From a bacterium (lineage in GTDB: Bacteria > Patescibacteriota > Microgenomatia > UBA1400 > PJMF01): DNA of 48,817 bases. The first letter of the stretch is position 1; each line of letters begins with the position of its first letter. The notes below the pieces were generated by a model, which was given only the letters and a program-made list of their open reading frames with translations, was not told the DNA's origin and did no database searches. Positions 9,270-37,912 of the stretch are shown one piece after another. The stretch is from NCBI GenBank assembly GCA_030539095.1, contig JAUNST010000002.1:1-48817 (forward strand), given 5' to 3'. Made by a program: the position numbers and the translations under genes.

Positions 9270-11627
9270 ATGCCCAACATGTTAAACAAAACGGATAAAA
9301 ATCAAAACGATCAAATTTTAGTTTTGCCAGTGGCGCCTTTGAAAGAAGGTACTATTTTCCCTGGACTAGAGACAAAAATGCTTTTTTCTCGTCCGCTTTC
9401 GCAGGCAGCTTTGCGCGCCTGCGGCAAAACTAAAAACTTAGTTTTTGTCACTACTCAAAAAGATGGCAAAATCGACGTGCCCACCACTGGTCAACTTTTC
9501 CGTGTCGGCGTCATTATCGAAATTAAAAGTACTGAAGTGGTGCCGGAAGGCATTATGGCCACTTTTCGCGCCGTCAATCGCGGTAAAGTTTTGAGTTGGC
9601 TCAAACGACGCGAAATCATGATTGCTCAAGTAGAAATGCTGCCAGATGTGGAAGATTTACCTAAAGAGCAGCTGAGAGTGATGAGCAATCATTTGCTAGA
9701 AGCTTTTTTGCGTTTGGTTCATTTAGGTAGCGTTAGCAATAGCGAAGAATTTGTAAAATTTTTGCGTCAAGTGCCTCCGAGTGAAGTCGCTGATCACATC
9801 GCCAATGTTCTGACTGCTTCTTTGGAAAGAAAACAAAAAATCCTGGAAACGCTCAATATTGGTGAACGTTTACAATTGGTTTTGGAGCAATTGGAAACAG
9901 AGTTGCAAATTGTTCAGGTGGAAAAACAAGTTATTGCCAAAACAAATGCTAAATTCGAAAAGAATATGAAGGAGAGCATTTTGCGTGAACGTTTGCAAAT
10001 GATTCAAAAAGAATTGGGCGATACGGACGACGAAGAAGAAGTGGCAGACGAATACAATAAACAGCTGGAAAAGTTAAAAACCAGCGATGATAATAAAAAG
10101 AAAATTAATAAAGAGCTCAAACGTTTTCGGCAAACGCCAACTATGAGTCCGGAAAGCGGTTATTTACGCACTTGGTTGGATACGGTTTTTGAATTGCCTT
10201 GGGGCAAATTGAGTCATGACCAATTAGATCTCAAAGAAGCAGCAAAAATTCTTGATCAATCGCATTACGGTTTGACTGAAGTCAAAGATCGTATTCTGGA
10301 ATATATTGCTGTTTTGCAATTGCGTGAAAAACAAAAACAAGCAAAAAAAACGCCGACTATTTTATGTTTTGTTGGTCCGCCAGGAGTAGGCAAAACTAGT
10401 ATCGGCAAGAGTATTGCTCAAGCTCTCGGTCGCCAATTCACCAAAATTTCTTTGGGTGGCGTGCACGACGAAGCGGAAATTCGTGGTCACCGACGTACTT
10501 ATGTTGGCGCCATGGCGGGTAGAATTATTACTGGTTTAAAACAGGCCGGCACGGCCAATCCGGTTTTTATGCTTGATGAGATCGATAAAATGGCTCATGA
10601 TTATAAAGGTGATCCTTCTTCTGCGCTGTTGGAGGTTTTAGATCCTGCTCAAAATCAGAGTTTTGAAGATCATTATTTAGACATGCCTTTTGATCTGTCG
10701 CAAGTGATTTTTATTGCTACAGCCAATACTTTAGATATTCCTTCTCCACTTTTGGATCGGATGGAAATTATCCGTTATAGCGGTTATACCACTGCGGAAA
10801 AGCAAATGATCGCTAAACGTTATCTTCTACCGAATGCGATTGAAGAAAATGGTTTGCAAAAGAAACAAGTGAAAATTAGTGATCGCATTTTGACGAAGAT
10901 TATTGAGACTTACACTCGAGAAGCTGGCGTGCGTGAACTTGATCGTCAATTGAATAAAATCATGCGCAAAATTGCTAAAGATATTTTGGAGAAGCAGCTC
11001 GAAAACGTGACGGTTGACGCAGCTAAATTGCATCAGTATTTAGGCCCAGAAAAATTTGATGTTTCTTTGCGCAATCAAAAAAGCGAAGTTGGCGTGGCCA
11101 CTGGTTTGGCCTGGACTAGCGTTGGCGGCGAAGTTCTTTTTGTGGAAGTAGCAGTCATGCCTGGTAAAGGCGAAATCAAATTGACTGGTCAACTTGGTGA
11201 CGTGATGAAAGAATCAGCGCAAGCAGCTTATACTTTTATTCGTAGTCACGCTCAACAATTAGGAATTGAACAAAAATTAATTGAGAAAAGCGACTTACAT
11301 ATTCATGTGCCAGAGGGAGCTGTACCTAAAGACGGACCTAGCGCCGGCGTAACCATGGTGACAGCTATCGTTTCTGCTTTAACTAAGAAACCAGTTCGCA
11401 AAGACGTAGCGATGACCGGTGAAGTTAATTTACGCGGTCAAGCCTTGCGAATTGGCGGGCTGAAAGAAAAAGCTTTAGCTGCTCATCGTGCCGGTTGTAA
11501 AACTGTTTTAATTCCAGCGGAAAATGAACGCGATTTGGTGGAAATTCCAGAAAAAATTCGCCAAGAAATTAAATTTATTCCGGTGAAAAATGTCACCGAG
11601 AATTTAACTTACGCTTTAGAGAAATAG
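9270..11627 (+). CDS. lon: ATP-dependent Lon protease
   Basis: GPPGVGKTS Walker A, catalytic-Ser motif KDGPSAG, and GGLKEK. The start is ambiguous: ATG 9270 or 9279. The ORF-track TTG at 9267 overlaps the -10 box. Confidence 0.9.
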
Positions 11628-25790: not shown

Positions 25791-25907
25791 CTTACTCCCG
25801 CCCCGCCAACGGCGGGGTGCCATAGCCGTCCACGACTTCGACTTTATTCATAGCCGCCCACGACTTCAGGAGCGGTCCCGCCAAACGGCGGTGGTAGCGA
25901 CACTTCC
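25791..25907 (-). repeat. tRNA-Ser 5'-fragment-like repeats flanked by GC-rich hairpins
   Basis: On the minus strand, GGAAGTGTCGC (identical to the first 11 nt of tRNA-Ser-CGA) ends at 25907. Two 19-nt copies of GAAGTCGTGG(G/A)CGGCTATG lie at 25849-25867 and 25821-25839. Hairpins lie at 25878-25891 and 25801-25817. Confidence 0.7.
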
Positions 25908-26010: not shown

Positions 26011-26096
26011 ACTCGGATTTTTTATTATAACAGAAATCGTCACAGAAGCAGTGGCGATTTCTTTTTTTCCTCTAGTAAGTTTTTTTCGTTGCCGTT

Positions 26097-26113
26097 CGCA
26101 GACCGCTGAGGTC
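26097..26113 (+). repeat. attL core (cgcagaccgctgaggtc)
   Basis: Exact 17-nt match to 36220-36236. Confidence 0.7.
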
Positions 26114-26134
26114 GTCGCCCACGGAAAGGAACCT

Positions 26135-26377
26135 ATGTTCTCCACTCGTTTTCGCTCTTGCCCAATTGAGCTCAAAGAAAGCGTGCCCAATTATAATCAG
26201 GCACTTATTTATTTAAGTGCGGAAATTCAAAAAGCTTATGGCTTTTTTCTCTACCAAAGTATTTACAATCTGCAAAGAGATCATGGGCTCACTAATCAAG
26301 ATATTATTAAAGCTTTTGGTTTTACGCGTCAGAACTTGAGTAAATTGGCTAAAAAGTACCGGCACTATTTTGTTTAA
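26135..26377 (+). CDS. Small HTH protein (regulator or excisionase candidate)
   Basis: 80 aa from ATG 26135 (aaagga SD). The ORF-track start 26051 would span attL. C-terminal HTH-like LTNQDIIKAFGFTRQNLSKLAKK. Confidence 0.55.
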   Translation: MFSTRFRSCPIELKESVPNYNQALIYLSAEIQKAYGFFLYQSIYNLQRDHGLTNQDIIKAFGFTRQNLSKLAKKYRHYFV

Positions 26378-26380
26378 TTT

Positions 26381-26557
26381 ATGCCAGCAGTTTTACCGCT
26401 TTTGCGGGCTTTATGCCGGAAGATTGAACGTTCACAAAGAAAACAGTTGAAACGAATTAATCGCGCGCGCGAGCGCGCGCAACAGCCGCTTTTTCCTACT
26501 TGGCAAGATTATCAATTGTGGACGCAAATACGCTTGTATAAAGAAAAACAGCGTTAA
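26381..26557 (+). CDS. Small basic hypothetical protein (58 aa; below the ORF-track cutoff)
   Basis: ATG lies 3 nt after the previous stop, and its own stop lies 3 nt before the next ATG. Both junctions share the same ttaatttatg sequence. Confidence 0.4.
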   Translation: MPAVLPLLRALCRKIERSQRKQLKRINRARERAQQPLFPTWQDYQLWTQIRLYKEKQR

Positions 26558-26560
26558 TTT

Positions 26561-26995
26561 ATGCGTGTGAATAAAAGCGGCTGGATCAAGCTTTACCGGC
26601 AATTGCTTCTAAGTGACCTTTGGCAAGATAAACCTTTTGCTCGCGGTCAAGCTTGGGTCGATTTACTTTTACTCTACGACAAAAACGCTAACCGTTTACA
26701 AATTAGCCAGCGAGAATTAAGTCGTCGGTGGGGCTGGAGCCTAACTAAAGTGCGAAATTTTTTGGCAGAATTGCAAGAGCATCAAGATTTAGAACTCATG
26801 CAAGAACAAAAAAAGACCACTCTTTTGCTGGCTAAATACCGCTTTTTTCAAGAAATTGCTTACACAAAAAAATCATTAGCGAGCGCAGTTAACTGGCAAA
26901 AACCAGAGGCATTAAAGAATAAGCAAGAAAAAGAAAAAAACAGCGCTTTGATTAGTAATCAAGCGCTGCTAGACTTTTGGGAAAAACAACGATGA
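26561..26995 (+). CDS. Winged-helix DNA-binding protein, replisome-organiser/replication-initiator-like
   Basis: N-terminus GWIKLYRQLLLSDLWQDKPFARGQAWVDLLLL...ISQRELSRRWGWSLTKVRNFLAELQ resembles phage replication-organiser N-termini. This is my recollection of that family, not a search result. Confidence 0.4.
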   Translation: MRVNKSGWIKLYRQLLLSDLWQDKPFARGQAWVDLLLLYDKNANRLQISQRELSRRWGWSLTKVRNFLAELQEHQDLELMQEQKKTTLLLAKYRFFQEIAYTKKSLASAVNWQKPEALKNKQEKEKNSALISNQALLDFWEKQR

Positions 26996-27309
26996 CCAGT
27001 GCTTGTTTAACTTGGGAAAAAACCAAAAAATTTTACTTGGAGGCTTGGCAAGCTGGTCAATTGGAAACCGTAATTTTGCAACAAGCGCAAACTTATTACG
27101 GTAGTCTGGCTAAAATGACTGCTAGTGGGCAATTGCATCAAGCTGGAAACTTTTTAGTCATGCAATTGCCCACTGCGAACCCAGATTTTAGTTTAACTCT
27201 ATTTGTCCATCGTTACCGATCAGAGTTATCTTATTTAAATTTGTTAAATCGTTCGCAAAATCTGATTTTTCGTTTACCACCTCTTAAGTCAAAAACCACT
27301 ACTGGTTGA
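26992..27309 (+). CDS. Hypothetical protein
   Basis: 105 aa; ATGA overlap with the upstream gene. Confidence 0.5.
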   Translation: MTSACLTWEKTKKFYLEAWQAGQLETVILQQAQTYYGSLAKMTASGQLHQAGNFLVMQLPTANPDFSLTLFVHRYRSELSYLNLLNRSQNLIFRLPPLKSKTTTG

Positions 27310-27310
27310 C

Positions 27311-27655
27311 CTAACTAAAAAAGACGTCTTGAATTAATTTGCTAGTTTTATTATCAAAATGATCCAAGCAACGAGTGGCGTGAATAATTTTTTGCAAAGC
27401 ACGCTTTTTGATTCTTTGTACGGTCGCCCGCGAAACAGCTATTTCATCAGCGATTTGTCCTTCAGTGTGGTCAAGGTAATAATTTTTACTAATCACTTCA
27501 GATTCTTCTTGAGACATCTGAAGAGCGGCACATAACTGACCAGTGATGCCTGGATTGCAAAGACGCAAACGCTCTTTGACAATTTTTTCTTCTAACATAT
27601 ACAAAATTAAAGAATGAACACATTTTAGAACGGTTTTTTCAAGATTTTGCTTCAA
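27311..27655 (-). CDS. Sigma-70 region-4-like HTH protein
   Basis: ...SEVISKNYYLDHTEGQIADEIAVSRATVQRIKKRALQKI matches the region-4 pattern. Confidence 0.55.
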   Translation of the reverse strand: MKQNLEKTVLKCVHSLILYMLEEKIVKERLRLCNPGITGQLCAALQMSQEESEVISKNYYLDHTEGQIADEIAVSRATVQRIKKRALQKIIHATRCLDHFDNKTSKLIQDVFFS

Positions 27656-27728
27656 TAAAGGCTCACCTTTTACCAGAGGAAAGGCTCTTTTTTTACATTG
27701 GCTGATAATTTTTACTCAAGAAAAAAGC

Positions 27729-27917
27729 TTATGGCTTTTCCAGACTGTTTTTGCTGCCTAGATTAATCGAAAAGTAGGCACTAGCCATGGAGATAGTGAA
27801 CATCCACCAGTCATCTGCGGTTAAAAAACCGCGCAAAACTAAGATAAAACCTAGAATTACTGGAATCAGCCACGCCAAAAATTTGCGGCTTAATAATTTA
27901 TGACCGATTTCGAGCAT
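27729..27917 (-). CDS. Small two-TM membrane protein (holin-like)
   Basis: 62 aa with two hydrophobic helices, directly downstream of the fibre gene. Confidence 0.4.
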   Translation of the reverse strand: MLEIGHKLLSRKFLAWLIPVILGFILVLRGFLTADDWWMFTISMASAYFSINLGSKNSLEKP

Positions 27918-27938
27918 CTGTTGAGACTTTCTAGCGCC

Positions 27939-28775
27939 TTATTCCTGGCGACCACCGAGATAAAGCCGAAAACCAGCGTTGCACTTTTCAATCATGTAGG
28001 TGGTCGCCTTGTTGGGCAAATTATTAGGCTCTAAATCGCTATTCATGCTCAGAAAACTGCTATTAAAAGTTAAATTGCGGTTGCCGACATTGTCTTGAAC
28101 AAAAATAAACGCTAGCCAATCCCCGATTTCCATATTAGTTGGTAGATTAAGGGTGAAATCTTGATTAGCTGTCACTTCTAGTTGATCGCTTAAACTTCCG
28201 TCTGGCGTCGTGCTGGCGCTATCGGTGATAATTGTGACTGCTCTGGGCGTTTTTAAGTAGGCGCGCCGGCGTTTATCAGTAATTTTCTCATTCAGAATCG
28301 CCGTGGCTCCAGCAGCAACTTCGATGACCGCTAATTTTTCAAAAGGGAAAAGCGTGCCTAAGGCCGTTTGAATTTCCGCGTCGGTGAGCTCCACTGGCGA
28401 AGCCGCTGGTGTACCAGCTAAAATCGCTAACTTAGCTACGTCTTTGCCTTCATTATCTTCGTCTGGCTGAGCATTTAAATCTAGATAAAGCACCACTGTA
28501 TCCAGGCGTGGATTAGAAGTGGCATTACTGCTAACGGTTAAAGTTTCCACGGCATCGCTGATAACCGGATAAGCATTGCCGCCGGTACTGTTTTTAAGAT
28601 AAGCGCGACCAGCTTGGACACTCACGCCCAAACTGCTAGGATTATTTTCTTCCACGGCAAAGTTGCTGCCGCTAAGTTTAATCATTCCGCCAGAGCGGAC
28701 TGCGTCGGTGAGTTGTGCGAGAACGGTTTTTTCTGGATGATTAGCGACTCCGGTGCGCATGGTATAAATTGACAT
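27939..28775 (-). CDS. Tail fibre / receptor-binding protein candidate
   Basis: 278 aa, the last large gene of the tail module. N-terminal part (...GRAYLKN...NPRLDTVVLYLD) resembles phage minor structural proteins. Confidence 0.5.
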   Translation of the reverse strand: MSIYTMRTGVANHPEKTVLAQLTDAVRSGGMIKLSGSNFAVEENNPSSLGVSVQAGRAYLKNSTGGNAYPVISDAVETLTVSSNATSNPRLDTVVLYLDLNAQPDEDNEGKDVAKLAILAGTPAASPVELTDAEIQTALGTLFPFEKLAVIEVAAGATAILNEKITDKRRRAYLKTPRAVTIITDSASTTPDGSLSDQLEVTANQDFTLNLPTNMEIGDWLAFIFVQDNVGNRNLTFNSSFLSMNSDLEPNNLPNKATTYMIEKCNAGFRLYLGGRQE

Positions 28776-28787
28776 AAAAACTTTCTT

Positions 28788-29885
28788 TTAATTATTTTCT
28801 AATCTTTCCAAACGTCGTAAAATTTCGCGGTAGTCTTGCAAGAAATCCTCGCTCGCTTGTTGCGGATTGAGAGTGAGATCAAGTAAGCAAGTTCCGTCTT
28901 TGTAAGTAAGCGTGCGCTTGCTTAGGCGCAACATTTGATCGAGATCAAGTTCGCGCAAGCGCAAGCGCACGCGATCGCCCACCTCATAACTTTGCCAGTC
29001 TGGCGCATTACCGAGCACGCTCAAAGTAATTTGATTATTACTGAGCGGAAAAGCGTTTTCCGCTAAATAAGTGGCTGCTCGTTCTGCCAAGCTGGCTTCG
29101 GTAGTTAAATCAGTGGCACTTAAATAACTTTCTTGTTTTCCCCAAGCCGTAATAGCATTTTGATCGGCAAAAGTATAACTGGCATTATTGCCTTTACCTT
29201 TAATTCGCACTTGATTCACTAAGTTGCCTAAAAGTCCTAGGCGACTTTGAAAACTCAAAATGTTTTGTTCGTCAAAAATAATGCCTGGTTGATCACTGCC
29301 AAGACGCGGATAAGCTAAATTTAATTGCCAATTCGCATTAAATTGCCAATCAAAACCATTGGCAATTTTATTAGCACTTAAACCGACTAAAGCGTCTAGG
29401 ACGCGCGCATTTTTAAAAGCGCGCGTCACTGTTACAGCGGTCTGACTAACTTCGCCCATGGTTAAACCTAAATCGGCACCGGCTTGGGCTTGAGTTAATA
29501 AATCCTCTGCCACCGTCATTAAATTAACATCGGTGTAATTTTGGCTGACGCCAGTTAAGCGCTTGCTAAGCAAGCTGCTCGCATCCGCAAAACTCAAGTC
29601 TAAACTTACGTCGTTTTGATCGCCATTCAAATTGGCGCTCGTCAACACACCTTTAAACAAAATGGTTTCTTTTACTTCATCATAAATGATAATTTTGCGC
29701 CAATTATCAAAAAGTAGTTGCCGCACCGTCTGCTGATTATTCTTTGCCACTTCGCGCAATAATACATACGGCACGCTTATTTGTCCCGATTCACCAAGGT
29801 TTAATGTCGTAGTCCAGCTAAACTGACTAAAAGGTAACCACCATTTTTGCGTTTCTTGCTTGTTGAGTAAATAAAGACTGAGCAT
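28788..29885 (-). CDS. Tail-associated hub protein (Tal / Sipho_Gp37-like)
   Basis: 365 aa, positioned after Dit. Pattern ...NGFDWQF...IIFDEQNI...VRIKGKG...GDRVRLRL typical of siphovirus Gp37-like proteins (from memory). Confidence 0.55.
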   Translation of the reverse strand: MLSLYLLNKQETQKWWLPFSQFSWTTTLNLGESGQISVPYVLLREVAKNNQQTVRQLLFDNWRKIIIYDEVKETILFKGVLTSANLNGDQNDVSLDLSFADASSLLSKRLTGVSQNYTDVNLMTVAEDLLTQAQAGADLGLTMGEVSQTAVTVTRAFKNARVLDALVGLSANKIANGFDWQFNANWQLNLAYPRLGSDQPGIIFDEQNILSFQSRLGLLGNLVNQVRIKGKGNNASYTFADQNAITAWGKQESYLSATDLTTEASLAERAATYLAENAFPLSNNQITLSVLGNAPDWQSYEVGDRVRLRLRELDLDQMLRLSKRTLTYKDGTCLLDLTLNPQQASEDFLQDYREILRRLERLENN

Positions 29886-29886
29886 T

Positions 29887-30729
29887 TTAAATTCCTAAAT
29901 AAGCGTCGTTATAGGCTAAAGTGGCGCTGCTAGCGGTAGTGGTGTCGTTGGCAGCAAAAAGAACATTGTTGCTGCCAGGAGCCACCGTCCACCATTGGCC
30001 AGAAATCGTCGGTAAAATATTGGTATTTTGTTTTAAAATAGCTGTCCGTTGATAAAAATCCAACACCAAAGTGTCGCCAGCACTTAAAGCCTGGCTACAT
30101 TGCAAACGTTGCGTTCTAGTTTGGTTAAGTAAAATAAATCCGTTCACCGGGCCAACGATGGTCGCCTGTAAATGGCTATAAGCATTGCCGGAGTTGGTTA
30201 ATTGAGTATACATTTCGCTGCTGGCGTTTAAATTCATGGCAGCCGGAACACTCATGGGAATTTGCAAACCGCCTAAATTAGCGATGCTGAGAGTGGCGCT
30301 TTTACTAGCGCCGAGTAAATACGATTTTTCCGTTTGAATTTGGATAAGAAACTCGCTTTTATTGACGTCGGCGGCGGCCATGGAATTTTGAATTGCCAAC
30401 ACTGCCGCCTTGCAAGTTAATTGCTGATTGTTATTGAGAACAAAAGTAAAAGTTTTCTGATCACTTTCGCTGCTGCCTGGATCAATGCTAAGTAAACTCA
30501 GAAAACGCTGTTTCTCAGCGGCGTTATTATCACCATTGGCAGTGATAATAACGCCAAAACTAATTACTAGGCTGCGGTAGCAAGCTTTGCCTAAAGCCAC
30601 GCCTTCGCCGCCGGCGCGGGCGTAACTGGCCACTTCAATCGTCGGACTGCCGGCGCCGTCGAGACTACTAATAAAACGGGTGCCGCTAATATTGACGCTG
30701 GTACCGTTAATGAGAATATTGCTGATCAT
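29887..30729 (-). CDS. Distal tail protein (Dit, Sipho_tail-like)
   Basis: ...LTNSGNAYSHLQATIVGPVNGFILLNQT...LSAGDTLVLDF is typical of Dit. ATG 30729 has an aaagga SD, so it is preferred to 30771. Confidence 0.6.
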   Translation of the reverse strand: MISNILINGTSVNISGTRFISSLDGAGSPTIEVASYARAGGEGVALGKACYRSLVISFGVIITANGDNNAAEKQRFLSLLSIDPGSSESDQKTFTFVLNNNQQLTCKAAVLAIQNSMAAADVNKSEFLIQIQTEKSYLLGASKSATLSIANLGGLQIPMSVPAAMNLNASSEMYTQLTNSGNAYSHLQATIVGPVNGFILLNQTRTQRLQCSQALSAGDTLVLDFYQRTAILKQNTNILPTISGQWWTVAPGSNNVLFAANDTTTASSATLAYNDAYLGI

Positions 30730-30743
30730 AATTCTGTTTTCCT

Positions 30744-31703
30744 TTAATAGCTCGGACTGCCGGCGAGCCAACCTAAACGTTGGATTAATGCTTCTAGTTG
30801 CTCGCTGCGATTAACAGTGGCGTTAACAGTAATCTGTGCCTGATTATTGCGATTTACAATTGTATTTGGCACAGCTTGCTGACCGCTAAGCATAGCCTTG
30901 GAAAGAACAAACTCGCCGGCGTGCACCAAAGCTAAACCAGTTTTCGGCACGTAACCGCCATTTTGAAATTTGGGAATTTGCCAATTGAGATCGAGACCAA
31001 TTTTGCCACCAACTTCGTTGACAAAAGCCAAGAGGCTATTAATTTTATCTATGACTCCGTTTACCAAGCCACTCACATAATTAATAATGTTGGCTGCCCC
31101 AGACTGGCAAACGCTACTTAAACCTTGCCAAAGTCCTCGCCAGAGTGCCGTGGCCAAATTGCCAAAAACAGTTAAACTATTGCCCAGAATGGTTAAAAGT
31201 TCACTCACGGCGGCGATCATCGTGGTGGCGGAAAAATCGCAATCAGCGATTAAAATTTCCCATTGACTATTGATAAAAGCCAAAAGCTGCGGCAATATTT
31301 CTTGTAAACTGAGGAGCAAATTGCCTACACCACCGGTGAAACTAACAAAAAGCGCATCTAAAGTTTGGGTAAAATGAGCACAAGTTTCGTCGAGTTGTTG
31401 CAAATATGGCGTAGCTACTTGAGTTGCCACTGGCAAATCTTCTTGTAAAAATTTCAAGAAGATTTGCGTGTTCCCTTGAAAATTTTCATCAGCAAAAACG
31501 TTTTGCAAGCCAACAAACGGACCTTTTAGATCTAAATCGGCTACTACTTGGCTTAAATTTTCTAATTTTTTTTGATATAAACCAACTGCTTGTGTCAAAT
31601 TAGTAATTTCTTTTTGATCAAGCGCCAGAAGTTGGTTATATTCTGCTTCGTCAGCAGTTAAATAACGTTCACCATAGCGTAATTCATTCGCAGTCATTGA
31701 CAT
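30744..31703 (-). CDS. Short tape measure protein
   Basis: 319 aa, helical N-terminal half, Gly/Leu-rich hydrophobic middle, C-terminal ...GGYVPKTGLALVHAGEFVLSKAM. Sits immediately upstream of Dit, with the chaperone gene further upstream across the 31704-32446 interruption. Confidence 0.6.
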   Translation of the reverse strand: MSMTANELRYGERYLTADEAEYNQLLALDQKEITNLTQAVGLYQKKLENLSQVVADLDLKGPFVGLQNVFADENFQGNTQIFLKFLQEDLPVATQVATPYLQQLDETCAHFTQTLDALFVSFTGGVGNLLLSLQEILPQLLAFINSQWEILIADCDFSATTMIAAVSELLTILGNSLTVFGNLATALWRGLWQGLSSVCQSGAANIINYVSGLVNGVIDKINSLLAFVNEVGGKIGLDLNWQIPKFQNGGYVPKTGLALVHAGEFVLSKAMLSGQQAVPNTIVNRNNQAQITVNATVNRSEQLEALIQRLGWLAGSPSY

Positions 31704-31828
31704 AAATACCTTTACCTATTTCAGATGATTTATTTTCTATTTTTATTGATCGGTTTTTATACATTGCTGCTTTTTTGCGGCTATCTTTATGCTAAAATGA
31801 ATTTTGGATTTATCTGTACTCGAGAGCA

Positions 31829-32158
31829 ATGGAAAAAACTAAGCGCAAATTAAGACGCCGTTTTTCGCAATTATCATTAGCTCAAGCGGCTAGAGTTTGT
31901 GAAAAACTTGGTTCACCAAAATTAGAAAAGGCAATCGTTTTAGACACTTATTGCCGATCTTTGGGCGAACAAAATTTAATTGAAAAACATCAAATCTCGC
32001 GGGCGACGCTCACTAGAGAAAGACAAACTTTCTGGCGCCGTGTGGACGCAGCCTTATTCGTACAAGATATTTTGCCGCCAGATGTTTACGATATCTTAAT
32101 TAAGGTTTTCTTAATTTTGATGACGATGTTTATGTGTAAATTGTCGGTTGCTATGTAG
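31829..32158 (+). CDS. HTH (sigma region-4-like) protein encoded antisense to the tail genes
   Basis: 109 aa; ...AIVLDTYCRSLGEQNLIEKHQISRATLTRERQTFWRRV. Confidence 0.5.
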   Translation: MEKTKRKLRRRFSQLSLAQAARVCEKLGSPKLEKAIVLDTYCRSLGEQNLIEKHQISRATLTRERQTFWRRVDAALFVQDILPPDVYDILIKVFLILMTMFMCKLSVAM

Positions 32159-32160
32159 TT

Positions 32161-32192
32161 GCATTTTTTCAACCGGGAAAACTTGAGCCTTT
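32161..32192. repeat. Motif copy c1 (TTTTTC-N6-GAAAACTTGAGCCTTT)
   Basis: gcattttttcaaccgggaaaacttgagccttt. 25 of 32 nt identical to c2. Confidence 0.7.
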
Positions 32193-32267
32193 AAACTTAA
32201 AAAGGTAGTTTACATCTGGAAAAAGCAAAAATAAATTAATTTTAGATTGATTGAAAGCACATAAAAT

Positions 32268-32299
32268 GCACTTTTTCGAGTGAGAAAACTTGAGCCTTT
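32268..32299. repeat. Motif copy c2
   Basis: gcactttttcgagtgagaaaacttgagccttt. Confidence 0.7.
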
Positions 32300-32392
32300 G
32301 TGCGGCTAAAACTTTTCTAATTAGGTTGATAATATTAAAGCTGTTCAACTAAGTACTGATAAATGGCTAAAGTGGCTTGGACAGTCGGAAAG

Positions 32393-32426
32393 GAGACCTG
32401 CCAAACATAGGCGGCGGGTCTCTTTT
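32393..32426. terminator. Hairpin terminator (possibly bidirectional) after the G/GT gene
   Basis: gagacctgcc (32393-32402) pairs with ggcgggtctc (32413-32422) with one G-U pair. tttt follows on the + strand and ctttcc on the - strand. Confidence 0.5.
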
Positions 32427-32446
32427 CAGTTAGCGCCGATTTAGGT

Positions 32447-32988
32447 TCATTTTTTCTGACGTTGGCAATCTCGCTCGGCTTTGTTTTTAATGCGTCGATA
32501 AAAAAGCATTTGTTGAATCCAGGCTTCTGGCTGAGCTAGGAGTTCCCAATAAGTGAGATGAAAAGTGTCGCATAAAAAACAAATTTCCAGATCTGGAGGT
32601 AAAGACGAGTCACTTTCACCGCGCAAAAAGCGGTAAAGTGGCTCTTCTAAACTTTTGGGACACTACTGCTGGCGGCTAAAAGCTGATTAACTGCGGCGAA
32701 AATTTTTTCGCCGTCTTGAGCGGGCAAATCAAAAATCTGTTCCAAAATTTCTTCTGGTTGAGTGTAACTTTGCCCGCCTATTTGTAGTTCTTGAATTAGG
32801 CTTTTAGCCGCCAGGTCTTGCGCCTCAAGCACCACGGTGCCAGGCACGCCAACCGTGGTTGGCGTGCCATTGGCGTTAATTTCGCTGCCGCTCAAGTAGA
32901 GTTTTTGTAACTCATGCTTGAGGCGCATGGAAACGAAATCCTTCAACAGTGCCTTATTGCCGGAATTTAGATCAACCGTGATACTCAT
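32447..32988 (-). CDS. Tail assembly chaperone G-T fusion made by -1 programmed frameshift
   Basis: Slippery heptamer C-CCA-AAA (plus-strand coordinates 32653-32659) lies 1 codon before the TAG. The -1 frame stays open for about 69 more codons, to TGA at 32449-32447. Confidence 0.6.
32647..32988 (-). CDS. Tail assembly chaperone (gpG-like)
   Basis: 113 aa, acidic, between the tube gene and the tape measure gene. Carries the slippery site at its 3' end. Confidence 0.65.
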   Translation of the reverse strand: MSITVDLNSGNKALLKDFVSMRLKHELQKLYLSGSEINANGTPTTVGVPGTVVLEAQDLAAKSLIQELQIGGQSYTQPEEILEQIFDLPAQDGEKIFAAVNQLLAASSSVPKV

Positions 32989-32989
32989 T

Positions 32990-33949
32990 TTAGCTAGCGT
33001 AACTACTAATTTGATTAATTAAGGTCAATTCGAAAAGAGTTTGCGTACTAGCATCCAAAGTGGCCACAAATTCCACTTCTAAACGAGCCGCTTCAGCGTT
33101 AATCGGATTGAGCAAAGCACTAAAATAGGCCTTTGGAAGGCTCAATTTCAGGCTTTCTTTGTTCACGTTGGTTCCGGAGAGACTGTCACCGTTAAAGGTG
33201 ATTTCTAAGGCTTTAGCGGCCTTGTCTAAATAGGCTTCGTAAAAACTTATCTGGTTGCTATCATTCAAATAGAGCACAAATTTGCCTTTTACCTCATAAC
33301 GACCGCTAGCAAAGCCTTGTGGATTCACATTGCCCAAACCGTATTGAGCTTGTTTATTGCTGATAATCTCCACTTCAAAGTTGGAAACCAGCGGTAAACT
33401 GGTATTATCAACTTTGAGACCAGCTGCCACGTCGGCATGAGTAAAAGTGTGTCCTAGATTGTAAGTGACAGTGGCAGCGCTGTTTACGTCTTCTACCACG
33501 CTCCTGCCGAGCAGACCATAAGTGGCTAAGATACTTCCTCCTGGCTCGGCAGTGATTTTCGCCGAGTTCACTAAAACACCGGCGTAACGCACCGGAAAAG
33601 TATCATTGTATTGCTCGATGGTGAAACTGGCTTTATTGCCTGTGGGCAAAAACTGATGTTCATAAATGCCAGTTTCGCCAGTGACAGCGGTGGTGGTAAC
33701 CGTACCACACAAACTGCGCCAGAAGTAACCAGCCGCCTGACTATCTAAGTCGGTCTCAATTTCGCCTTCATGCGTCACTAAACCTTGGTAATAGTCGCTG
33801 TAAGCGCTTAAACTGCCGTCAAAAACTTCTTGACCGCGCAAATCGACCAAAGTTTTCATGCCTTCGCCAGCTCGAATTGGCAAACCCTTTGTCGGCGCCA
33901 CCGCTGTACCAAGTGTGCTTTCTAAACCAAAACTAAAATGTTTACTCAT
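32990..33949 (-). CDS. Major tail (tube) protein
   Basis: 319 aa. The assignment is mainly by synteny: it lies immediately upstream of the frameshifting chaperone gene. Confidence 0.55.
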   Translation of the reverse strand: MSKHFSFGLESTLGTAVAPTKGLPIRAGEGMKTLVDLRGQEVFDGSLSAYSDYYQGLVTHEGEIETDLDSQAAGYFWRSLCGTVTTTAVTGETGIYEHQFLPTGNKASFTIEQYNDTFPVRYAGVLVNSAKITAEPGGSILATYGLLGRSVVEDVNSAATVTYNLGHTFTHADVAAGLKVDNTSLPLVSNFEVEIISNKQAQYGLGNVNPQGFASGRYEVKGKFVLYLNDSNQISFYEAYLDKAAKALEITFNGDSLSGTNVNKESLKLSLPKAYFSALLNPINAEAARLEVEFVATLDASTQTLFELTLINQISSYAS

Positions 33950-34091
33950 TTTGTCCTTTCACCTTAATAATTAATGGATGTTCCAACTCGAGGCTACAAA
34001 AGAATTCTTGGCCATAACGCAAAAAATAACTTTGACCGGTTTCTGTCCGCAAAACTAAGGGAAAAGATCCTATGTATCGGTATTTATTCAT
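33942..34091 (-). CDS. Small hypothetical protein (49 aa; below the ORF-track cutoff)
   Basis: ATG lies 1 nt after the upstream stop, and its own stop overlaps the tube-gene ATG. Confidence 0.4.
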   Translation of the reverse strand: MNKYRYIGSFPLVLRTETGQSYFLRYGQEFFCSLELEHPLIIKVKGQNE

Positions 34092-34092
34092 A

Positions 34093-34524
34093 TTAGCTCC
34101 GGACATTTTGATTAATTAAAAAAGTTAATTCCAATTTATAAACAGGAATAGGATTGTCTGAGCTATACTCGAGAGATGCTTCGCTAGTACTGCTCTGAGC
34201 CGCCCAACTGACGCCACTGCCCAAAGTAGTAGCTCCCTCAAGAGTATTGAGAATCGTCCAAACAGTGCTGCGGCAATTAGTTTCCCAGGCGCTCAAATCA
34301 GTAGCAGAATTAAAATAACAAACTTCAAAAGTGATGGCACGTTGATTACGGGCTAAATCCAGATAATAACTTTGATGCTTAGCCAGATTAATGGTCACTG
34401 TGGGGCCGCTCAGAGCGCTTAAATCCACTCTGGAGCCGCTGACGGTGACGCCGCTTAAGGCGTTTGTAAGTAAATTAACTAAAATAGTGACTAAGTCATT
34501 AAGCATAATTTTGATTGTAGGCAT
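34093..34524 (-). CDS. Tail terminator / tail completion-like protein
   Basis: 143 aa from ATG 34524. It is the first gene of the tail operon, upstream of the tube gene. The call is positional only. Confidence 0.4.
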   Translation of the reverse strand: MPTIKIMLNDLVTILVNLLTNALSGVTVSGSRVDLSALSGPTVTINLAKHQSYYLDLARNQRAITFEVCYFNSATDLSAWETNCRSTVWTILNTLEGATTLGSGVSWAAQSSTSEASLEYSSDNPIPVYKLELTFLINQNVRS

Positions 34525-34548
34525 TTTTTGCTCTTGTTTTATATATTT

Positions 34549-34586
34549 TAGCAATACTTGCAAATTATTGCTAAGAGTGCTAAAAT
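34549..34586 (+). promoter_or_regulatory. Promoter TTGCAA-N17-(TGc)TAAAAT overlapped by the inverted repeat TAGCAATA-N9-TATTGCTA
   Basis: -35 at 34558-34563, -10 at 34581-34586, inverted-repeat arms at 34549-34556 and 34566-34573. Lies in the divergent region between the tail operon and the 34594 gene. Confidence 0.5.
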
Positions 34587-34593
34587 TAGGCTT

Positions 34594-35253
34594 ATGTTTG
34601 TGCGCACTCCAGATAATCGCCTACTTTTTCAAAATGGCAGATTGGAGTGCGAAATTCTACCCTATTTTAGCCAAAGCCGGCTTTTTCAACTTAAAAAAGA
34701 ACTCCTTTTACTGGAACAAGTTTATTTTTGTGAAGTTTTTGGTAATTGCCCTTTTATTTTTTTATCGCCAGAGGAATATCGTGTTTTAAGTTTGAAAAAG
34801 CGCTATTTTTCTCACGCTGCTATTGCCAAAACTTTGCGTTTATCGCTCACACAGGTGGAAAAATTAGTCCAGATTTTGCAACAAAAGTATCAACTCTGGG
34901 CGCATGACGAAAATTTTAAATTACATCCAGATCTGGATTTAGTAAAAATACGAGTGACGGAAATGAATTTTTCCGATTTGTTAACTGGCGAGCAGCTGGA
35001 AGAACTTAACGAAATCTTGCCTGGAGATAACGGTCAAGAGAGTAAAAACCAGTGGAGCAAAATCGCTACTGCCGATATTCTCAATCTTTTAACCAGTGTT
35101 CAGAAACAGACGGCGATTTTGCTTGAACAAGGTTATTCTCCAGAGGAAATTGGCGCGCGCCTGGGCGTCAGCACACAAGAAGTTTATCAGAAAATTGCTA
35201 GAATGCGCGCGCGCCTGCAAAAAGCCGGTTACGGCCCAAAAGCTAAGCAGTAA
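34594..35253 (+). CDS. Protein with two sigma-region-4/LuxR-like HTH modules
   Basis: LSPEEYRVLSLKKRYFSHAAIAKTLRLSLTQVEKLV and LTSVQKQTAILLEQGYSPEEIGARLGVSTQEVYQKIARMRARL. ATG 34594 is preferred to TTG 34558. Confidence 0.6.
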   Translation: MFVRTPDNRLLFQNGRLECEILPYFSQSRLFQLKKELLLLEQVYFCEVFGNCPFIFLSPEEYRVLSLKKRYFSHAAIAKTLRLSLTQVEKLVQILQQKYQLWAHDENFKLHPDLDLVKIRVTEMNFSDLLTGEQLEELNEILPGDNGQESKNQWSKIATADILNLLTSVQKQTAILLEQGYSPEEIGARLGVSTQEVYQKIARMRARLQKAGYGPKAKQ

Positions 35254-36058
35254 AATGGTGATAAGGATGTACGGCTGCCGCTTCTCGCATAAAATCCACT
35301 GATTGATCAAGATAATGCATGGTCGTGGTAATTCTAGAATGTCGCAGCAACCTTTGCATGTATTGAATCGGAACCTTGCCAGAAGCAATCCCAATCGTAG
35401 CAAAAGTATGACGAAAACTATGCGGAGTAATGTGTTTATCACAATGCATTAAACGTAGGCGAAGTTGGCAATCTTTTTCGACTGTTCTCAAGGAAAGCGG
35501 TCGCGGGCCACCATTAAAAGAAAACGCAAACGGGCCATTTTGGGCACGCAGATACGGCAAAATTTCTTCCTTTACCCAGGCAAAAAGAATAATTGGCTTG
35601 CCGTCGTTAGTTTTGGTATTTTGCGGATAAAAACAATTATTGTCTAGATCAAAATCGTTAAGTTGCAGCCTGGCTACTTCTGACGGTCGTGTGCCAGAGA
35701 AACAATGAAGCAACCAAAAGGCGTCTAACACCGGATTAGTTTTTAAATTCACAAATTCTTTAAGCTCGTTTTCGTTTAGAGTTGGTTTATGTTTGGGAAA
35801 ACAACGAAATTTCTTTAGATCATGATACCAATTCTCTTGAGTAAAAAGACACCACCAACGAGCAACTTTTAAATATTTATTCAATGTTTCCGCCTGGGTG
35901 CCGCTTCTTTGTTTGCTTAAACAAAACTTTTTTAAGGCGAGAGCCGATTCTAGATTATTCCCTAAATATTTCGCTAACCGCGCATACTCTAAACAAGTGT
36001 TTTCTTTGAGGCAATTTTGCGTTCGCAGGAAAAACAAGAAATCCAAACTTGTTTTCAT
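35243..36058 (-). CDS. int: Tyrosine recombinase / phage integrase
   Basis: SGTRPSEVARL (Arg I), HSFRHTFAT (H-x-x-R) and LLRHSRITTTMHYL (catalytic Tyr). Confidence 0.9.
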   Translation of the reverse strand: MKTSLDFLFFLRTQNCLKENTCLEYARLAKYLGNNLESALALKKFCLSKQRSGTQAETLNKYLKVARWWCLFTQENWYHDLKKFRCFPKHKPTLNENELKEFVNLKTNPVLDAFWLLHCFSGTRPSEVARLQLNDFDLDNNCFYPQNTKTNDGKPIILFAWVKEEILPYLRAQNGPFAFSFNGGPRPLSLRTVEKDCQLRLRLMHCDKHITPHSFRHTFATIGIASGKVPIQYMQRLLRHSRITTTMHYLDQSVDFMREAAAVHPYHHFTA

Positions 36059-36138
36059 ACTTCTGTTCTTACCAGCCGCTTTTTAGCCTATTCTGATATG
36101 ATATGTTATATTTAGTAAAAAAGTTATTTAACAAAAAT

Positions 36139-36160
36139 CAAGTTTTCTCGAGTGAAAAAC
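36139..36160. repeat. Motif copy c3 (inverted relative to c1/c2)
   Basis: The reverse complement of caagttttctcgagtgaaaaac is gtttttcactcgagaaaacttg, which matches TTTTTC-N6-GAAAACTTG. Confidence 0.6.
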
Positions 36161-36166
36161 TGCTGC

Positions 36167-36195
36167 TTGACAACTAATACAAAATATGTTAAAAA
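36167..36195 (+). promoter_or_regulatory. Outward-facing promoter-like element TTGACA-N17-(TGt)TAAAAA pointing across attR
   Basis: TTGACA at 36167-36172 and TAAAAA at 36190-36195, with TG at 36187-36188. Confidence 0.35.
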
Positions 36196-36214
36196 TAGGT
36201 ATAACTATTAAAAA

Positions 36215-37912
36215 CTACGCGCAGACCGCTGAGGTCTGCGAACGTATAATTTTTTCCAGACTTTCTTGATCGAGTCCAAGCGTTTTTAGCTGTTCGCTGC
36301 GCGAAGCCTGAGCAATAAATTCGTCTGGAATAGCCTGAATCAGTAATTGCGGTCGATTTTTCGCTGGTCGGTTGGCTAAAAGCGTGGCAATTTGTTGCCC
36401 GACGCCGCCAATTAAGGCATTTTCTTCCACTACTAAAACTTTTTTATAGTTAGCAAAAATTTGCTCGAGAAATTTTTCTGGCAACGGTTTAACAATTGGC
36501 AAATGAAAGTGGGCAAAATCCAAATCTGGATTTTCTATCGCTTCGACAGTACCTTTGCAAAAACCAGTCGTAATAACTGCCAATTGTTGGCTTTGACTAT
36601 AGCGGAATTGCCGAGGTGTTAATTTTCCACCTGGTAGCGGCAAAGCAAATTTTTCTCCTGGCGGGAAGCAAAGTTTGGGATAGCAAATTGCCACTGGTTT
36701 TTTCGCCACGCGGGCCAGCTCTAAACTTTGCTGCAATTCTGGCAAATCGCCAGGCATCAAAATTTGCAAATTAGGAATTAGATTGAGAAAAGAAAAAGCT
36801 AGCGTGCCTTGATGAGTGGCGCCATCTTCGCCAACTAAGCCAGCTCGATCAACTAAGAGCGCCACTGGCACTTCGCCAATCGCTACATCGTGAATAATTT
36901 GGTCAAAAGCTCTTTGCAAAAAACTCGCATAAAAATGACAAAACGGTTTTTTGCCCGCCAAAGCTAAGCCGGCACTCAAGCCAAGAGCATGACTTTCAGC
37001 GATGCCAACGTCAAAAAATCTCTCTGGAAATTTTTGCACAAAAGGCATTAAGCCAGCACTTTGCTGCATCGCCGCGCTAATCACTTGCACTCGTTCGTCT
37101 TTTTCGCCCAAACTAACCAAAGCTTGACCGACGAAATCGTGCAATTTAGCTCGATTTTGTTGGCGCGATTTGGCAGCTGGATAAAAGTGACTAGCAACTG
37201 GGTTTTGACTCGCCAAATCGCAACCATGACCTTTTTGCGTTTTAATATGCAGCACTCGCGGGCCACTCTGTGACTGCAATTTTTGCAAAGTTTCAATTAA
37301 CAATGGTAAATTATGCCCGTCTATCGGCCCTGTATACGGCAAGCCGAAACTTTGCAAAAATTGCTGGTAGCGCTGGCCGTCGGCAATTGCGCCGGCGCAT
37401 TTATCAATTGAATATTGATTATCATTCACAATTACCAAAATGTTTTGCTTGGTAGTCGCTAAATGATTAAGCGCCTCCACTGCCATGCCGTTTAAAAGCG
37501 ATCCATCGCCAATTATAGCGATACAGCAATGTTTTTTATCTTTATAGCTCAAACCCAAAGCCAAAGAAATCGAATTACCGGCATGGCCAGTTACACACGG
37601 ATCACATTTGCTTTCGCCAGGATTCATAAAACCGCTTAAACCGTTTTTTTGTCTTAAAGTGGCGAAAGCAGCCGGTCTATCCGTCAAAAGCTTATGAGTA
37701 TAACTTTGATGACCGACGTCAAAAATAAAGCGATCTTTTTCCGGTTCAAAAACTTGGTGCAAAGCCAAAGTCAGCTCCACTGTACCTAAACTGCCGCTTA
37801 AATGACCGCCGTTTCTTTCGCAAGTGGCTAAAATTTCTTGACGTAAATTTGTTGCTAAAGTTTGTAATTGTGCCAAAGTCAACTGTTTAAACATTTTTTG
37901 CTTCATGTTCAA
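36215..37912 (-). CDS. dxs: 1-deoxy-D-xylulose-5-phosphate synthase (short form)
   Basis: GGHLSGSLGTVELTLALH...DVGHQSYTHKLLT, a TPP-binding GDG...N motif and transketolase-like C-terminal domains. Confidence 0.8.
   Translation of the reverse strand: MNMKQKMFKQLTLAQLQTLATNLRQEILATCERNGGHLSGSLGTVELTLALHQVFEPEKDRFIFDVGHQSYTHKLLTDRPAAFATLRQKNGLSGFMNPGESKCDPCVTGHAGNSISLALGLSYKDKKHCCIAIIGDGSLLNGMAVEALNHLATTKQNILVIVNDNQYSIDKCAGAIADGQRYQQFLQSFGLPYTGPIDGHNLPLLIETLQKLQSQSGPRVLHIKTQKGHGCDLASQNPVASHFYPAAKSRQQNRAKLHDFVGQALVSLGEKDERVQVISAAMQQSAGLMPFVQKFPERFFDVGIAESHALGLSAGLALAGKKPFCHFYASFLQRAFDQIIHDVAIGEVPVALLVDRAGLVGEDGATHQGTLAFSFLNLIPNLQILMPGDLPELQQSLELARVAKKPVAICYPKLCFPPGEKFALPLPGGKLTPRQFRYSQSQQLAVITTGFCKGTVEAIENPDLDFAHFHLPIVKPLPEKFLEQIFANYKKVLVVEENALIGGVGQQIATLLANRPAKNRPQLLIQAIPDEFIAQASRSEQLKTLGLDQESLEKIIRSQTSAVCA
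36220..36236 (+). repeat. attR core (cgcagaccgctgaggtc)
   Basis: Exact match to 26097-26113. Embedded in the palindrome cgcagacc-gctga-ggtctgcg inside the last codons of dxs. Confidence 0.7.

Follow-up and report, generated by a model that had tools for sequence, protein, structure and literature searches.

What does a bacterium do with a complete phage tail when no gene for a phage head accompanies it? The question is raised by a 10,140-bp insertion (positions 26097-36236) in a 48,817-nucleotide stretch of bacterial DNA (GenBank assembly GCA_030539095.1, contig JAUNST010000002.1), the whole of which we call the window. A preliminary description, made from the letters of the window, had recognized an integrative element with a non-contractile tail and no head, packaging or lysin genes, and had offered two candidate interpretations, a mobile F-type (flexible-tail) tailocin and a tail-donating satellite. 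Both fit the results presented here, and the sequence data cannot separate them. We favor, with a probability of about 0.5, an excisable F-type tailocin-like element, in effect a tail factory, whose closest known counterparts are monocin and rhizoviticin.

The insertion is discrete. It is framed by an exact 17-bp direct repeat, CGCAGACCGCTGAGGTC, and in 2000 shuffles of both 500-bp boundary zones no chance repeat exceeded 13 nucleotides, which bears out the intact att sites proposed earlier. The element is inserted where dxs (36215-37912 on the minus strand; PF13292, 4.5e-77) finishes at its 3' end in a terminator hairpin, and the right copy of the repeat codes for the final dxs residues, ...SQTSAVCA. 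The att core is itself palindromic (CGCAGACC-N5-GGTCTGCG, at 36220-36240 and also at 26093-26117), and this palindrome appears to double as the intrinsic terminator of dxs. The dxs genes of the related loci L013, L015, L016 and L017 lack the att-encoded SQTSAVCA tail. Because relatives without the full element finish dxs in another way (...KKIISD*), the element probably contributes a new dxs C terminus together with its terminator. A tRNA-Ser(gga) gene lies about 90 bp beyond attL, and all the open reading frames (ORFs) tested beyond the element on both sides are cellular, including PcrA, NusG, L1, UvrB, Lon, glycosyltransferases, GAPDH, FemAB, MurC, MurE, glycyl-tRNA synthetase (GlyRS), CorA and ABC transporters. 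Since both flanks consist of host cellular genes, the element is an insertion in its own right and not the edge of a larger prophage. Its coding density is 91%.

We assigned gene families by profile searches of the ORFs against Pfam and PHROGs, and against NCBIfam and PADLOC for ORFs that remained unassigned (Table 1). Together with the frameshift site described below, the Pfam and PHROG matches confirmed a complete non-contractile tail, with tube, G/GT chaperones, tape measure protein (TMP), Dit, Tal and fiber, and no sheath family was matched in the profile searches of the element. The preliminary description had asked whether the ORF at 32990-33949 encodes a tube or an HK97-fold capsid protein. 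In agreement with PF18906 and phrog_290, a profile of this family matched 8xan, a "major tail structural protein," in PDB (4.8e-10). A model from a 9-sequence alignment had a pLDDT of 49, and its Foldseek matches were weak (best E value, 1.7e-3) but coherent, nearly all being tube/Hcp-fold proteins, with no HK97 capsid among the 50 matches listed. This supportive result and the profile matches identify the protein as a tube. The claim of an intact -1 slippery site in the chaperone genes was also verified: the heptamer C_CCA_AAA (minus strand, 32659-32653) lies three codons ahead of the G stop; T is an open frame at -1 relative to G, and a G-T fusion of 180 amino acids (aa) is predicted.

Two other labels held in part. 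The position of the 143-aa protein (34093-34524) fits that of a tail terminator, as had been suggested, but besides position the label has one weak match, by hhalign (E value, 7.8e-4; probability, 25%), to the 140-aa gene directly upstream of the tube gene in the phage contig L020. A PDB profile search with this protein gave no match, nor did BLASTP or hhalign against the proteins upstream of the tube in the phage loci L005 and L007, and a single-sequence AlphaFold model (pLDDT, 47) predicted two helices packed on beta strands. The 62-aa protein described as holin-like with two transmembrane segments is a small membrane protein conserved in three relatives (L002, L003 and L004, introduced below), but its second hydrophobic segment is weak and it has no family match.

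Searches of Pfam, PHROGs, NCBIfam and PADLOC matched no ORF of the element to a family of capsids, portals, proteases, terminases or endolysins; for the unassigned ORFs, NCBIfam and PADLOC gave nothing useful, and homology to an HK97 capsid, portal or terminase was not detected among them in the four libraries. These ORFs encode 54 to 143 aa and total about 1.7 kb, and because they are so small, there is too little room for a capsid, a portal and a large terminase. The absence of head, packaging and lysin genes noted in the preliminary description is thus upheld. We also considered the fiber as a hidden capsid protein, since some of its PHROG matches are labeled "head protein," and rejected this on its position after Tal; its homologues in complete phages likewise follow Tal and have a separate HK97-type capsid gene upstream. 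A PDB profile search with the fiber gave no match.

The head-less design is shared with related genomes. With the tube protein as the query, about 5.8 billion clustered proteins yielded five close homologues (62 to 76% identity) and, as a sixth match, a 209-aa fragment, and an exhaustive HMMER scan of 1.84 billion representatives showed that the tube family forms one 50%-identity cluster, with the next relatives at ≤33%. The element is present in L002 (a 52-kb contig of an NCBI metagenome-assembled genome [MAG]), L003 (12.7 kb), L004 (12.4 kb) and L011, a 17-kb ENA contig that ends inside the tube gene. These loci have in common, in L011 as far as the contig runs, an order of about 18 genes: integrase, divergent regulator, a 137-aa protein, an approximately 50-aa protein, tube, G, T, one or more reverse-oriented small genes, a TMP of 313 to 350 aa, Dit, Tal, fiber, a small membrane protein, a 95-aa sigma region-4 protein and then a reverse four-gene arm that finishes with a helix-turn-helix (HTH) protein. 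Head genes are absent from all four of these elements. A 7,114-bp contig with the tube homologue P0003 and the dxs homologue P0021 probably carries another copy. The search of related genomes that had been suggested therefore returned the same head-less element in four assemblies, with a fifth probable; their tube proteins are 57 to 80% identical to that of the window.

The boundaries recur as well. Direct repeats overlapping the same palindromic core frame the elements of L002 (19 bp) and L003 (17 bp), and the att core lies beside dxs in L001, L002, L003 and L011. The element adjoins dxs in the window and in these same four loci, and probably on the P0003 contig. In L004, a toxin-antitoxin-like pair (132-750; an antitoxin of the HI1420-downstream type and a 119-aa partner) stands beside the integrase gene, where dxs otherwise sits; it is either cargo of the element or a sign of a different insertion context.

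The element genes are under purifying selection. Between the window and L011, they have dN/dS values of 0.09 to 0.15 at a dS of 1.2 to 1.4, similar to those of the flanking host genes (0.03 to 0.12 at a dS of 1.4 to 2.1). For the integrase compared with L011, pN was 0.13 with synonymous sites saturated, and synonymous sites were mostly saturated between the window and L003. The targets of the dN/dS comparison contained no in-frame stops. The CCCAAAA heptamer three codons ahead of the G stop and the -1 extension are present in all four elements examined (window, L002, L003 and L004). Intact collinear copies, purifying selection and kept recoding together rule out simple decay and misassembly. 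The earlier argument against a decaying remnant is thereby strengthened by four further collinear assemblies, a dN/dS of about 0.1 and a retained slip site, and the bounded structure recurs in assemblies of different projects, as would not be expected of a larger prophage split by misassembly. The integrase gene of L002 (7767-8615) has one in-frame stop at codon 55 in an otherwise intact element, which could be early immobilization or a sequencing error.

The tail module descends from siphophages that have heads. Among GenBank phages, we found only about 26% identity to tube proteins of Pseudomonas phages and no Tal match. Distant tube homologues (25 to 27% identity) lie within the complete siphophage modules L005 and L007, where the order is candidate terminase, portal, SU10-type capsid, head-closure protein, tube, G, T and a TMP of 1248 to 1292 aa. 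The nearest complete relatives are the IMG/VR contigs L020, L021 and L026, with identities of 31 to 32% for the tube, 35 to 37% for T, 25 to 30% for Tal and 35 to 43% for the fiber, whose counterpart is the gene downstream of Tal. By Pfam annotation, L020 encodes a portal with Mu-F, an S78 protease, an HK97-type capsid, an HK97-gp10-like protein and a 140-aa protein, followed by tube, G/T, a reverse-oriented Ltp lipoprotein, a 770-aa TMP, Dit, Tal and fiber. The tape measure of the element aligns with the C-terminal part of this 770-aa TMP. The three phages thus share a homologous tail module in the same order; they have head genes upstream and TMPs of about 500 to 770 aa, whereas the element has an integrase and a regulator instead. 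Judged by its genes, the element is a siphophage tail module that has been stripped of its head and packaging block and whose tape measure has been cut to about 40% of the phage length. A reverse-oriented gene stands between the chaperone and TMP genes in both, encoding the 109-aa protein (31829-32158) in the element and an Ltp-type lipoprotein in L020 (11531-12073; PF07553, 3e-48), and this gap appears to be a conserved "moron" slot in the phage lineage.

The host is probably a deep-branching member of the candidate phyla radiation (CPR)/Patescibacteria, of the Microgenomates type. Its dxs belongs to an isolated clade with ≤43% identity to anything outside, the nearest named UvrB homologues are from Microgenomates, Woesebacteria and Pacebacteria (60 to 63% identity), and the flanks in the window encode a GlyRS of the dimeric type and a FemAB homologue. 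The small-genome, CPR-like host proposed earlier agrees with the UvrB result, but the affiliation is only probable. We rejected the label "Pseudomonadales bacterium" on related MAGs (P0027 and P0140) as unreliable, since it conflicts with dxs, UvrB, GlyRS and FemAB.

Several comparisons bear on how long the element has resided in this lineage. In GC content (41.4%) and in tetranucleotide usage, which correlates with that of the flanks at r = 0.975, the element stays within the host's own range. Compared with the window, dxs is 77% identical in L011 and about 50 to 65% identical in the hosts from which L002, L003 and the P0003 contig come; for element proteins, the identity is 76 to 82% in L011 and 30 to 76% in the others, except for the sigma region-4 regulator (74 to 91%). 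Element divergence thus seems to scale roughly with host divergence; the tube protein has changed somewhat less than dxs, and the remaining element genes keep pace with the host. We see no clear sign of recent horizontal transfer, a comparison of identities that is ambiguous at this thin sampling. In every readable case (five copies, beside dxs), the insertion site is identical.

Two element genes stand alone at the dxs locus in L012 (dxs, 88% identity) and in L013, L015 and L016 (dxs, 57 to 58%). They are divergently arranged homologues of the 109-aa protein and the 95-aa sigma region-4 protein (27311-27598), located at 5387-6188 in L012, 4692-5627 in L013, 4172-5158 in L015 and 1937-2871 in L016; in L012 and L013, the pair sits between dxs and tRNA-Ser. 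Nucleotide alignment showed that L012 equals the window minus three blocks, the first running from the integrase to T, the second from the TMP to the membrane protein and the third comprising the left arm, and the att core is absent from L012. The retained pair is strongly constrained between the window and L012, with dN/dS values of 0.016 for the 95-aa protein and 0.078 for its partner. At the dxs site of L017 (dxs, 46%), no element genes were found. The simplest reading of these sequences is an old element at the dxs site that has been cut down to its regulators in some lineages; the pair may be a co-opted remnant, an addiction-like module or the ancestral state. The shared site, parallel divergence, host-like composition and regulator-only loci favor an element of long residence under selection over a satellite in active spread. 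With integrase and att sites intact, the element may still move. We found no terminal overlap indicative of a circular form in contigs L003 and L004. No copies were found in IMG/VR (tube, Tal and sigma region-4 queries) or JGI metagenomes (tube and sigma region-4 queries), where the host clade is barely sampled.

Among known systems, monocin encodes its cap, tube, two chaperones, TMP, Dit, hub, fibers, regulators and lysis cassette in 18 genes, and a 622-aa TMP corresponds to a 103-nm particle with 22 tube rings (PMC11830787). The element resembles it in being a head-less cluster of about 18 genes with the same parts in the same order, both derived from siphophage tails (PMC11830787). This resemblance is one of parts list and gene order, and the parts list, which equals that of the F-type tailocin as defined structurally for monocin, speaks for a tailocin-like reading. 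Monocin differs in having a holin-lysin cassette, a 622-aa TMP and three fiber proteins, whereas the element has one fiber, a 319-aa TMP and no recognizable lysin. To our knowledge, monocin has no integrase, att sites or replication gene; all three are present in the element, the last as a DnaD-like gene.

Rhizoviticin of Allorhizobium vitis is an experimentally proven F-type tailocin whose production requires early/replication genes (PMC10811719). It is a 22.7-kb chimera of two prophages with a truncated integrase, no detectable attL or attR and clear lysis genes, and has been read as a prophage in transition to a tailocin (PMC10811719). Like the element, it is a head-less flexible-tail locus with an early region, replication genes and integrase sequence, and because this precedent keeps early/replication genes and an integrase remnant, it lends support, by analogy, to the tailocin reading. 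The element differs in its size (10.1 kb), full-length integrase, exact att repeats and a design kept across deeply diverged hosts. The F-type pyocins of Pseudomonas aeruginosa are chromosomally encoded, non-contractile, head-less tail particles of the lambda type; they differ from the element in a fixed, non-mobile locus, dedicated regulators, a lysis cassette, a Gram-negative host and much longer particles.

The preliminary description had regarded both of its candidates as new for a CPR-like bacterium. Our literature searches found no account of an excisable, replication-equipped, tail-only element and none that joins tailocins with Patescibacteria, but the novelty is narrowed by rhizoviticin, a published F-type tailocin with an integrase remnant (PMC10811719). 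What appears to be new is a head-less flexible-tail element that keeps an integrase, att sites and a replication protein, in a minimal 10-kb, 18-gene version held under selection across a deeply diverged, uncultivated and probably CPR-type lineage. If particles are made, they would be, as far as our searches show, the first tail-like weapon or tool for such bacteria, and the element would be both a near-minimal flexible-tail blueprint and a living prophage-tailocin intermediate. If the element is instead packaged by a helper, it would represent a new class of satellite.

The element is a phage-derived, site-specifically integrated unit that has lost the whole head and packaging module and kept a short non-contractile tail set. 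Read as tailocin-like, its activity, from induction through excision, replication in production and particle release to killing or some other effect, can be pictured as follows. A signal would lift repression at HTH/operator sites, and the element's own sigma region-4 activators would turn on the two tail operons. Excision from the dxs terminator would be the work of the integrase, and the excised form would be amplified by the DnaD-like module, which would raise gene dosage. Tails would assemble from the terminator-position cap, tube, G/GT, tape measure, Dit, Tal hub and one fiber, and would be freed by the small membrane protein acting together with autolysins of the host or with unrecognized lysis genes. 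Free tails could then act on neighboring cells in the manner of an F-type tailocin: the fiber and Tal would bind, and the tape measure would insert into the membrane. By scaling the 319-aa TMP from monocin, we infer a tube of about 50 nm with about 11 rings.

Several points weigh against this reading. We know of no characterized F-type tailocin with a tail as short as 50 nm and of no tailocin with a working integrase and att sites; the F-type tailocins that we know of come from few bacteria (Pseudomonas, Listeria and Allorhizobium), none with a working integration system. In most members, the integrase and att sites appear to be under purifying selection, for which a pure bacteriocin would have no obvious need. 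An endolysin was not recognizable in the window or in any relative. The fiber is no more variable than the other tail proteins (57 to 67% identity) and so gives no hint of the diversified specificity that tailocins typically show. Tail particles, their activity and expression of the element are all predictions from its genes. On the other side, the stop in the L002 integrase and the regulator-only remnants count in favor of this reading, as signs of a drift toward fixation in the relatives.

The persistence of the integration and replication functions would fit a tail-donating satellite. Such an element would excise and replicate with an active helper, have its DNA packaged, probably as multimers, in helper capsids and join its own short tails to them, thereby redirecting host range and interfering with the helper, the converse of those phage-inducible chromosomal islands that form capsids (cf-PICIs). 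Its size of 10 to 12 kb fits, and so does the maintenance by selection of an intact integrase, att sites and a replication-loader module; its late-type activators could be wired to a helper, and the terminator-position protein would permit head docking. Phage satellites (PICI, cf-PICI, P4-like, PLE and EPIP) resemble the element in size (about 10 to 15 kb) and in having an integrase, regulators, replication functions and partial virion genes (PMC12822802). There is a precedent for a division of labor in the cf-PICIs, which make capsids and steal tails, but the satellites known to us carry capsid/packaging functions or none and take tails from the helper, and EPIPs carry a TMP plus capsid genes. 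Our literature searches found no satellite with a full tail and no capsid. Nothing in the element was recognized as a small terminase, a cos/pac determinant or a capsid-size factor, a helper prophage was absent from the 48.8-kb window and the other loci examined, and IMG/VR holds related complete phages but, with the three queries above, yielded no copy of the element. The roughly parallel divergence of element and host and the fully ameliorated composition also speak against it. On balance, we regard a tail-donating satellite as a serious but unlikely explanation, and its fuller form, a tail-forming satellite of a CPR-type bacterium whose conserved integrase, att sites and replication module serve real horizontal transfer, as rather unlikely.

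Long vertical retention under strong purifying selection, a probable Microgenomates-type CPR host and the lack of a lysis enzyme, which fits non-lytic use, would suit either one locus of a split, domesticated system like a gene transfer agent (GTA), any head genes then lying in another part of the genome, or tails with a non-killing role, for instance in adhesion or in the contact of a CPR episymbiont with its partner cell. We find this doubtful, since it leaves the integrase, att sites and replication module unexplained and a secretion or anchoring component is absent. The deleted head module, the integrase stop in L002 and the four related genomes that are down to two regulators could also mark a functionless, defective prophage remnant whose erosion is still to come. 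That is very unlikely in view of the same intact tail genes in four assemblies beyond the window and probably a fifth, a dN/dS of about 0.1 despite saturated synonymous sites, a conserved programmed frameshift, and a uniformly short tape measure (313 to 350 aa) that indicates a selected design. Lastly, the metagenome-assembled source and several unannotated small ORFs might suggest an assembly artifact, a piece of some larger prophage or a whole miniature virus with head genes too divergent to be recognized, but host genes at both ends of one contig, a repeat-bounded structure that recurs across the assemblies of different projects, leftover ORFs with too little coding capacity for capsid, portal and terminase, and a 319-aa tube in place of an HK97-fold capsid make this extremely improbable.

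The remaining genes of the element are regulatory, replicative or without assignment (Table 1). The tyrosine integrase and the replication-organizer-like protein proposed earlier were both confirmed (PF00589, 9.6e-15, and phrog_1, 2.4e-30, for the former; a DnaD-like loader by phrog_186, 1.6e-11, for the latter). Of three sigma region-4-like HTH proteins, those at 27311-27655 (3.9e-8) and 34558-35253 (2.5e-6) stood, but the one at 31829-32158 gave no significant match. The 95-aa sigma region-4 protein is the most conserved gene product of the element (74 to 95% identity in relatives); it also has a marginal match to a terS PHROG (E value, 3.2e-3). The small HTH protein is 58 to 68% identical to its counterparts of 83 to 84 aa in L002, L003 and L004, and the DnaD-like loader has 51 to 65% identity in relatives. 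Beyond the loader domain, no primase, helicase or origin of replication was identified in the element.

Table 1. Positions in the window of the genes and sites of the element, with the evidence for each assignment
Feature	Position	Strand	Evidence
attL core, 17-bp direct repeat	26097..26113		Exact copy of 36220-36236
Small HTH protein, first left-arm gene	26136..26377 (ORF open from 26051)	+	Weak MarR/Tfx-type HTH match
58-aa basic protein	26381..26557	+	No family match; homologues in L003, L004
DnaD-like helicase loader/replication organizer	26561..26995	+	phrog_186 1.6e-11; phrog_2514 4.2e-10
~105-aa protein, last left-arm gene	26977..27309	+	No family match; 37-40% identity in L003, L004
95-aa sigma-70 region-4 regulator	27311..27598 (ORF open to 27655)	-	PF04545 3.9e-8; phrog_351, phrog_3512 "sigma factor"
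62-aa membrane protein, holin position	27729..27917	-	Hydrophobic segment at residues 8-35 and a weaker second one
Fiber/receptor-binding protein	27939..28775	-	phrog_3398 5.9e-14; phrog_4549 "tail fiber" 5.5e-7
Tal/baseplate hub	28788..29885	-	PF06605 2.8e-8; PF24032 4.3e-7; phrog_1885 1.3e-19
Dit, distal tail protein	29887..30771	-	PF22768 SPP1_Dit 1.8e-8; phrog_33 2.1e-14
Short tape measure protein, 319 aa	30744..31703	-	14 TMP PHROGs, best 1.7e-10
109-aa reverse-oriented protein between chaperone and TMP genes, presumed regulator	31829..32158	+	No significant family match
Palindromic motif, two copies (32160-32192 and 32267-32299, 33-nt repeat), candidate operator	32160..32299		
T extension, via -1 frameshift at CCCAAAA (32659-32653)	32447..32659	-	phrog_9001 "tail assembly chaperone" 1.5e-3
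Tail assembly chaperone G	32647..32988	-	Position; frameshift partner; 32% identity to post-tube gene of L020
Tail tube protein, 319 aa	32990..33949	-	PF18906 2.2e-22; phrog_290 7e-30
49-54-aa protein	33942..34106	-	No family match; 38-76% identity in L002, L003, L004, L011
143-aa protein, tail-terminator position	34093..34524	-	Two genes upstream of tube, with only the 49-aa ORF intervening; weak profile match
219-231-aa regulator, C-terminal sigma region-4/HTH domain	34594..35253 (ORF open from 34558)	+	PF08281 2.5e-6; phrog_323, phrog_1740
Tyrosine integrase	35243..36058	-	PF00589 9.6e-15; phrog_1 2.4e-30
Palindromic motif, third copy, between int and attR	36133..36160		
attR core (36220-36236), within dxs terminator hairpin	36220..36240	-	Direct repeat; hairpin of 8 pairs and T-run

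Genes that might serve in lysis differ among the members. The only candidate of this type in the window is the conserved 62-aa membrane protein, and some relatives have extra small genes beside it, which gave no Pfam match and have no counterparts in the window. In L004, a 160-aa protein (10052-10534) with a Cys...His pattern could be a cysteine-peptidase lysin. Proteins of 97 to 101 aa in L002 (16296-16589) and L003 (10368-10673), each with an N-terminal transmembrane segment and a coiled coil, resemble a spanin or a lysis regulator.

Three small repeats complete the description of the locus. The palindrome GTTTTTCA-N4-GAGAAAACTTGA occurs three times in the element, twice just downstream of the 109-aa gene and once upstream of the integrase gene, and was also seen in L011 (near 11760) and L012 (near 5337); it is a candidate operator for the element's repressor. 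An exact 18-nucleotide repeat, AAAAAGCTTATGGCTTTT, is found within the first left-arm gene (26229-26246) and at the junction of the membrane protein and sigma region-4 genes (27722-27739). Outside the element, between two tRNA-Ser genes, two copies of a 19-nucleotide direct repeat, CATAGCCGYCCACGACTTC, lie 28 bp apart (25821-25867); the sequence near them looks like a tRNA end and may be a relic of an earlier integration or of a tRNA duplication.

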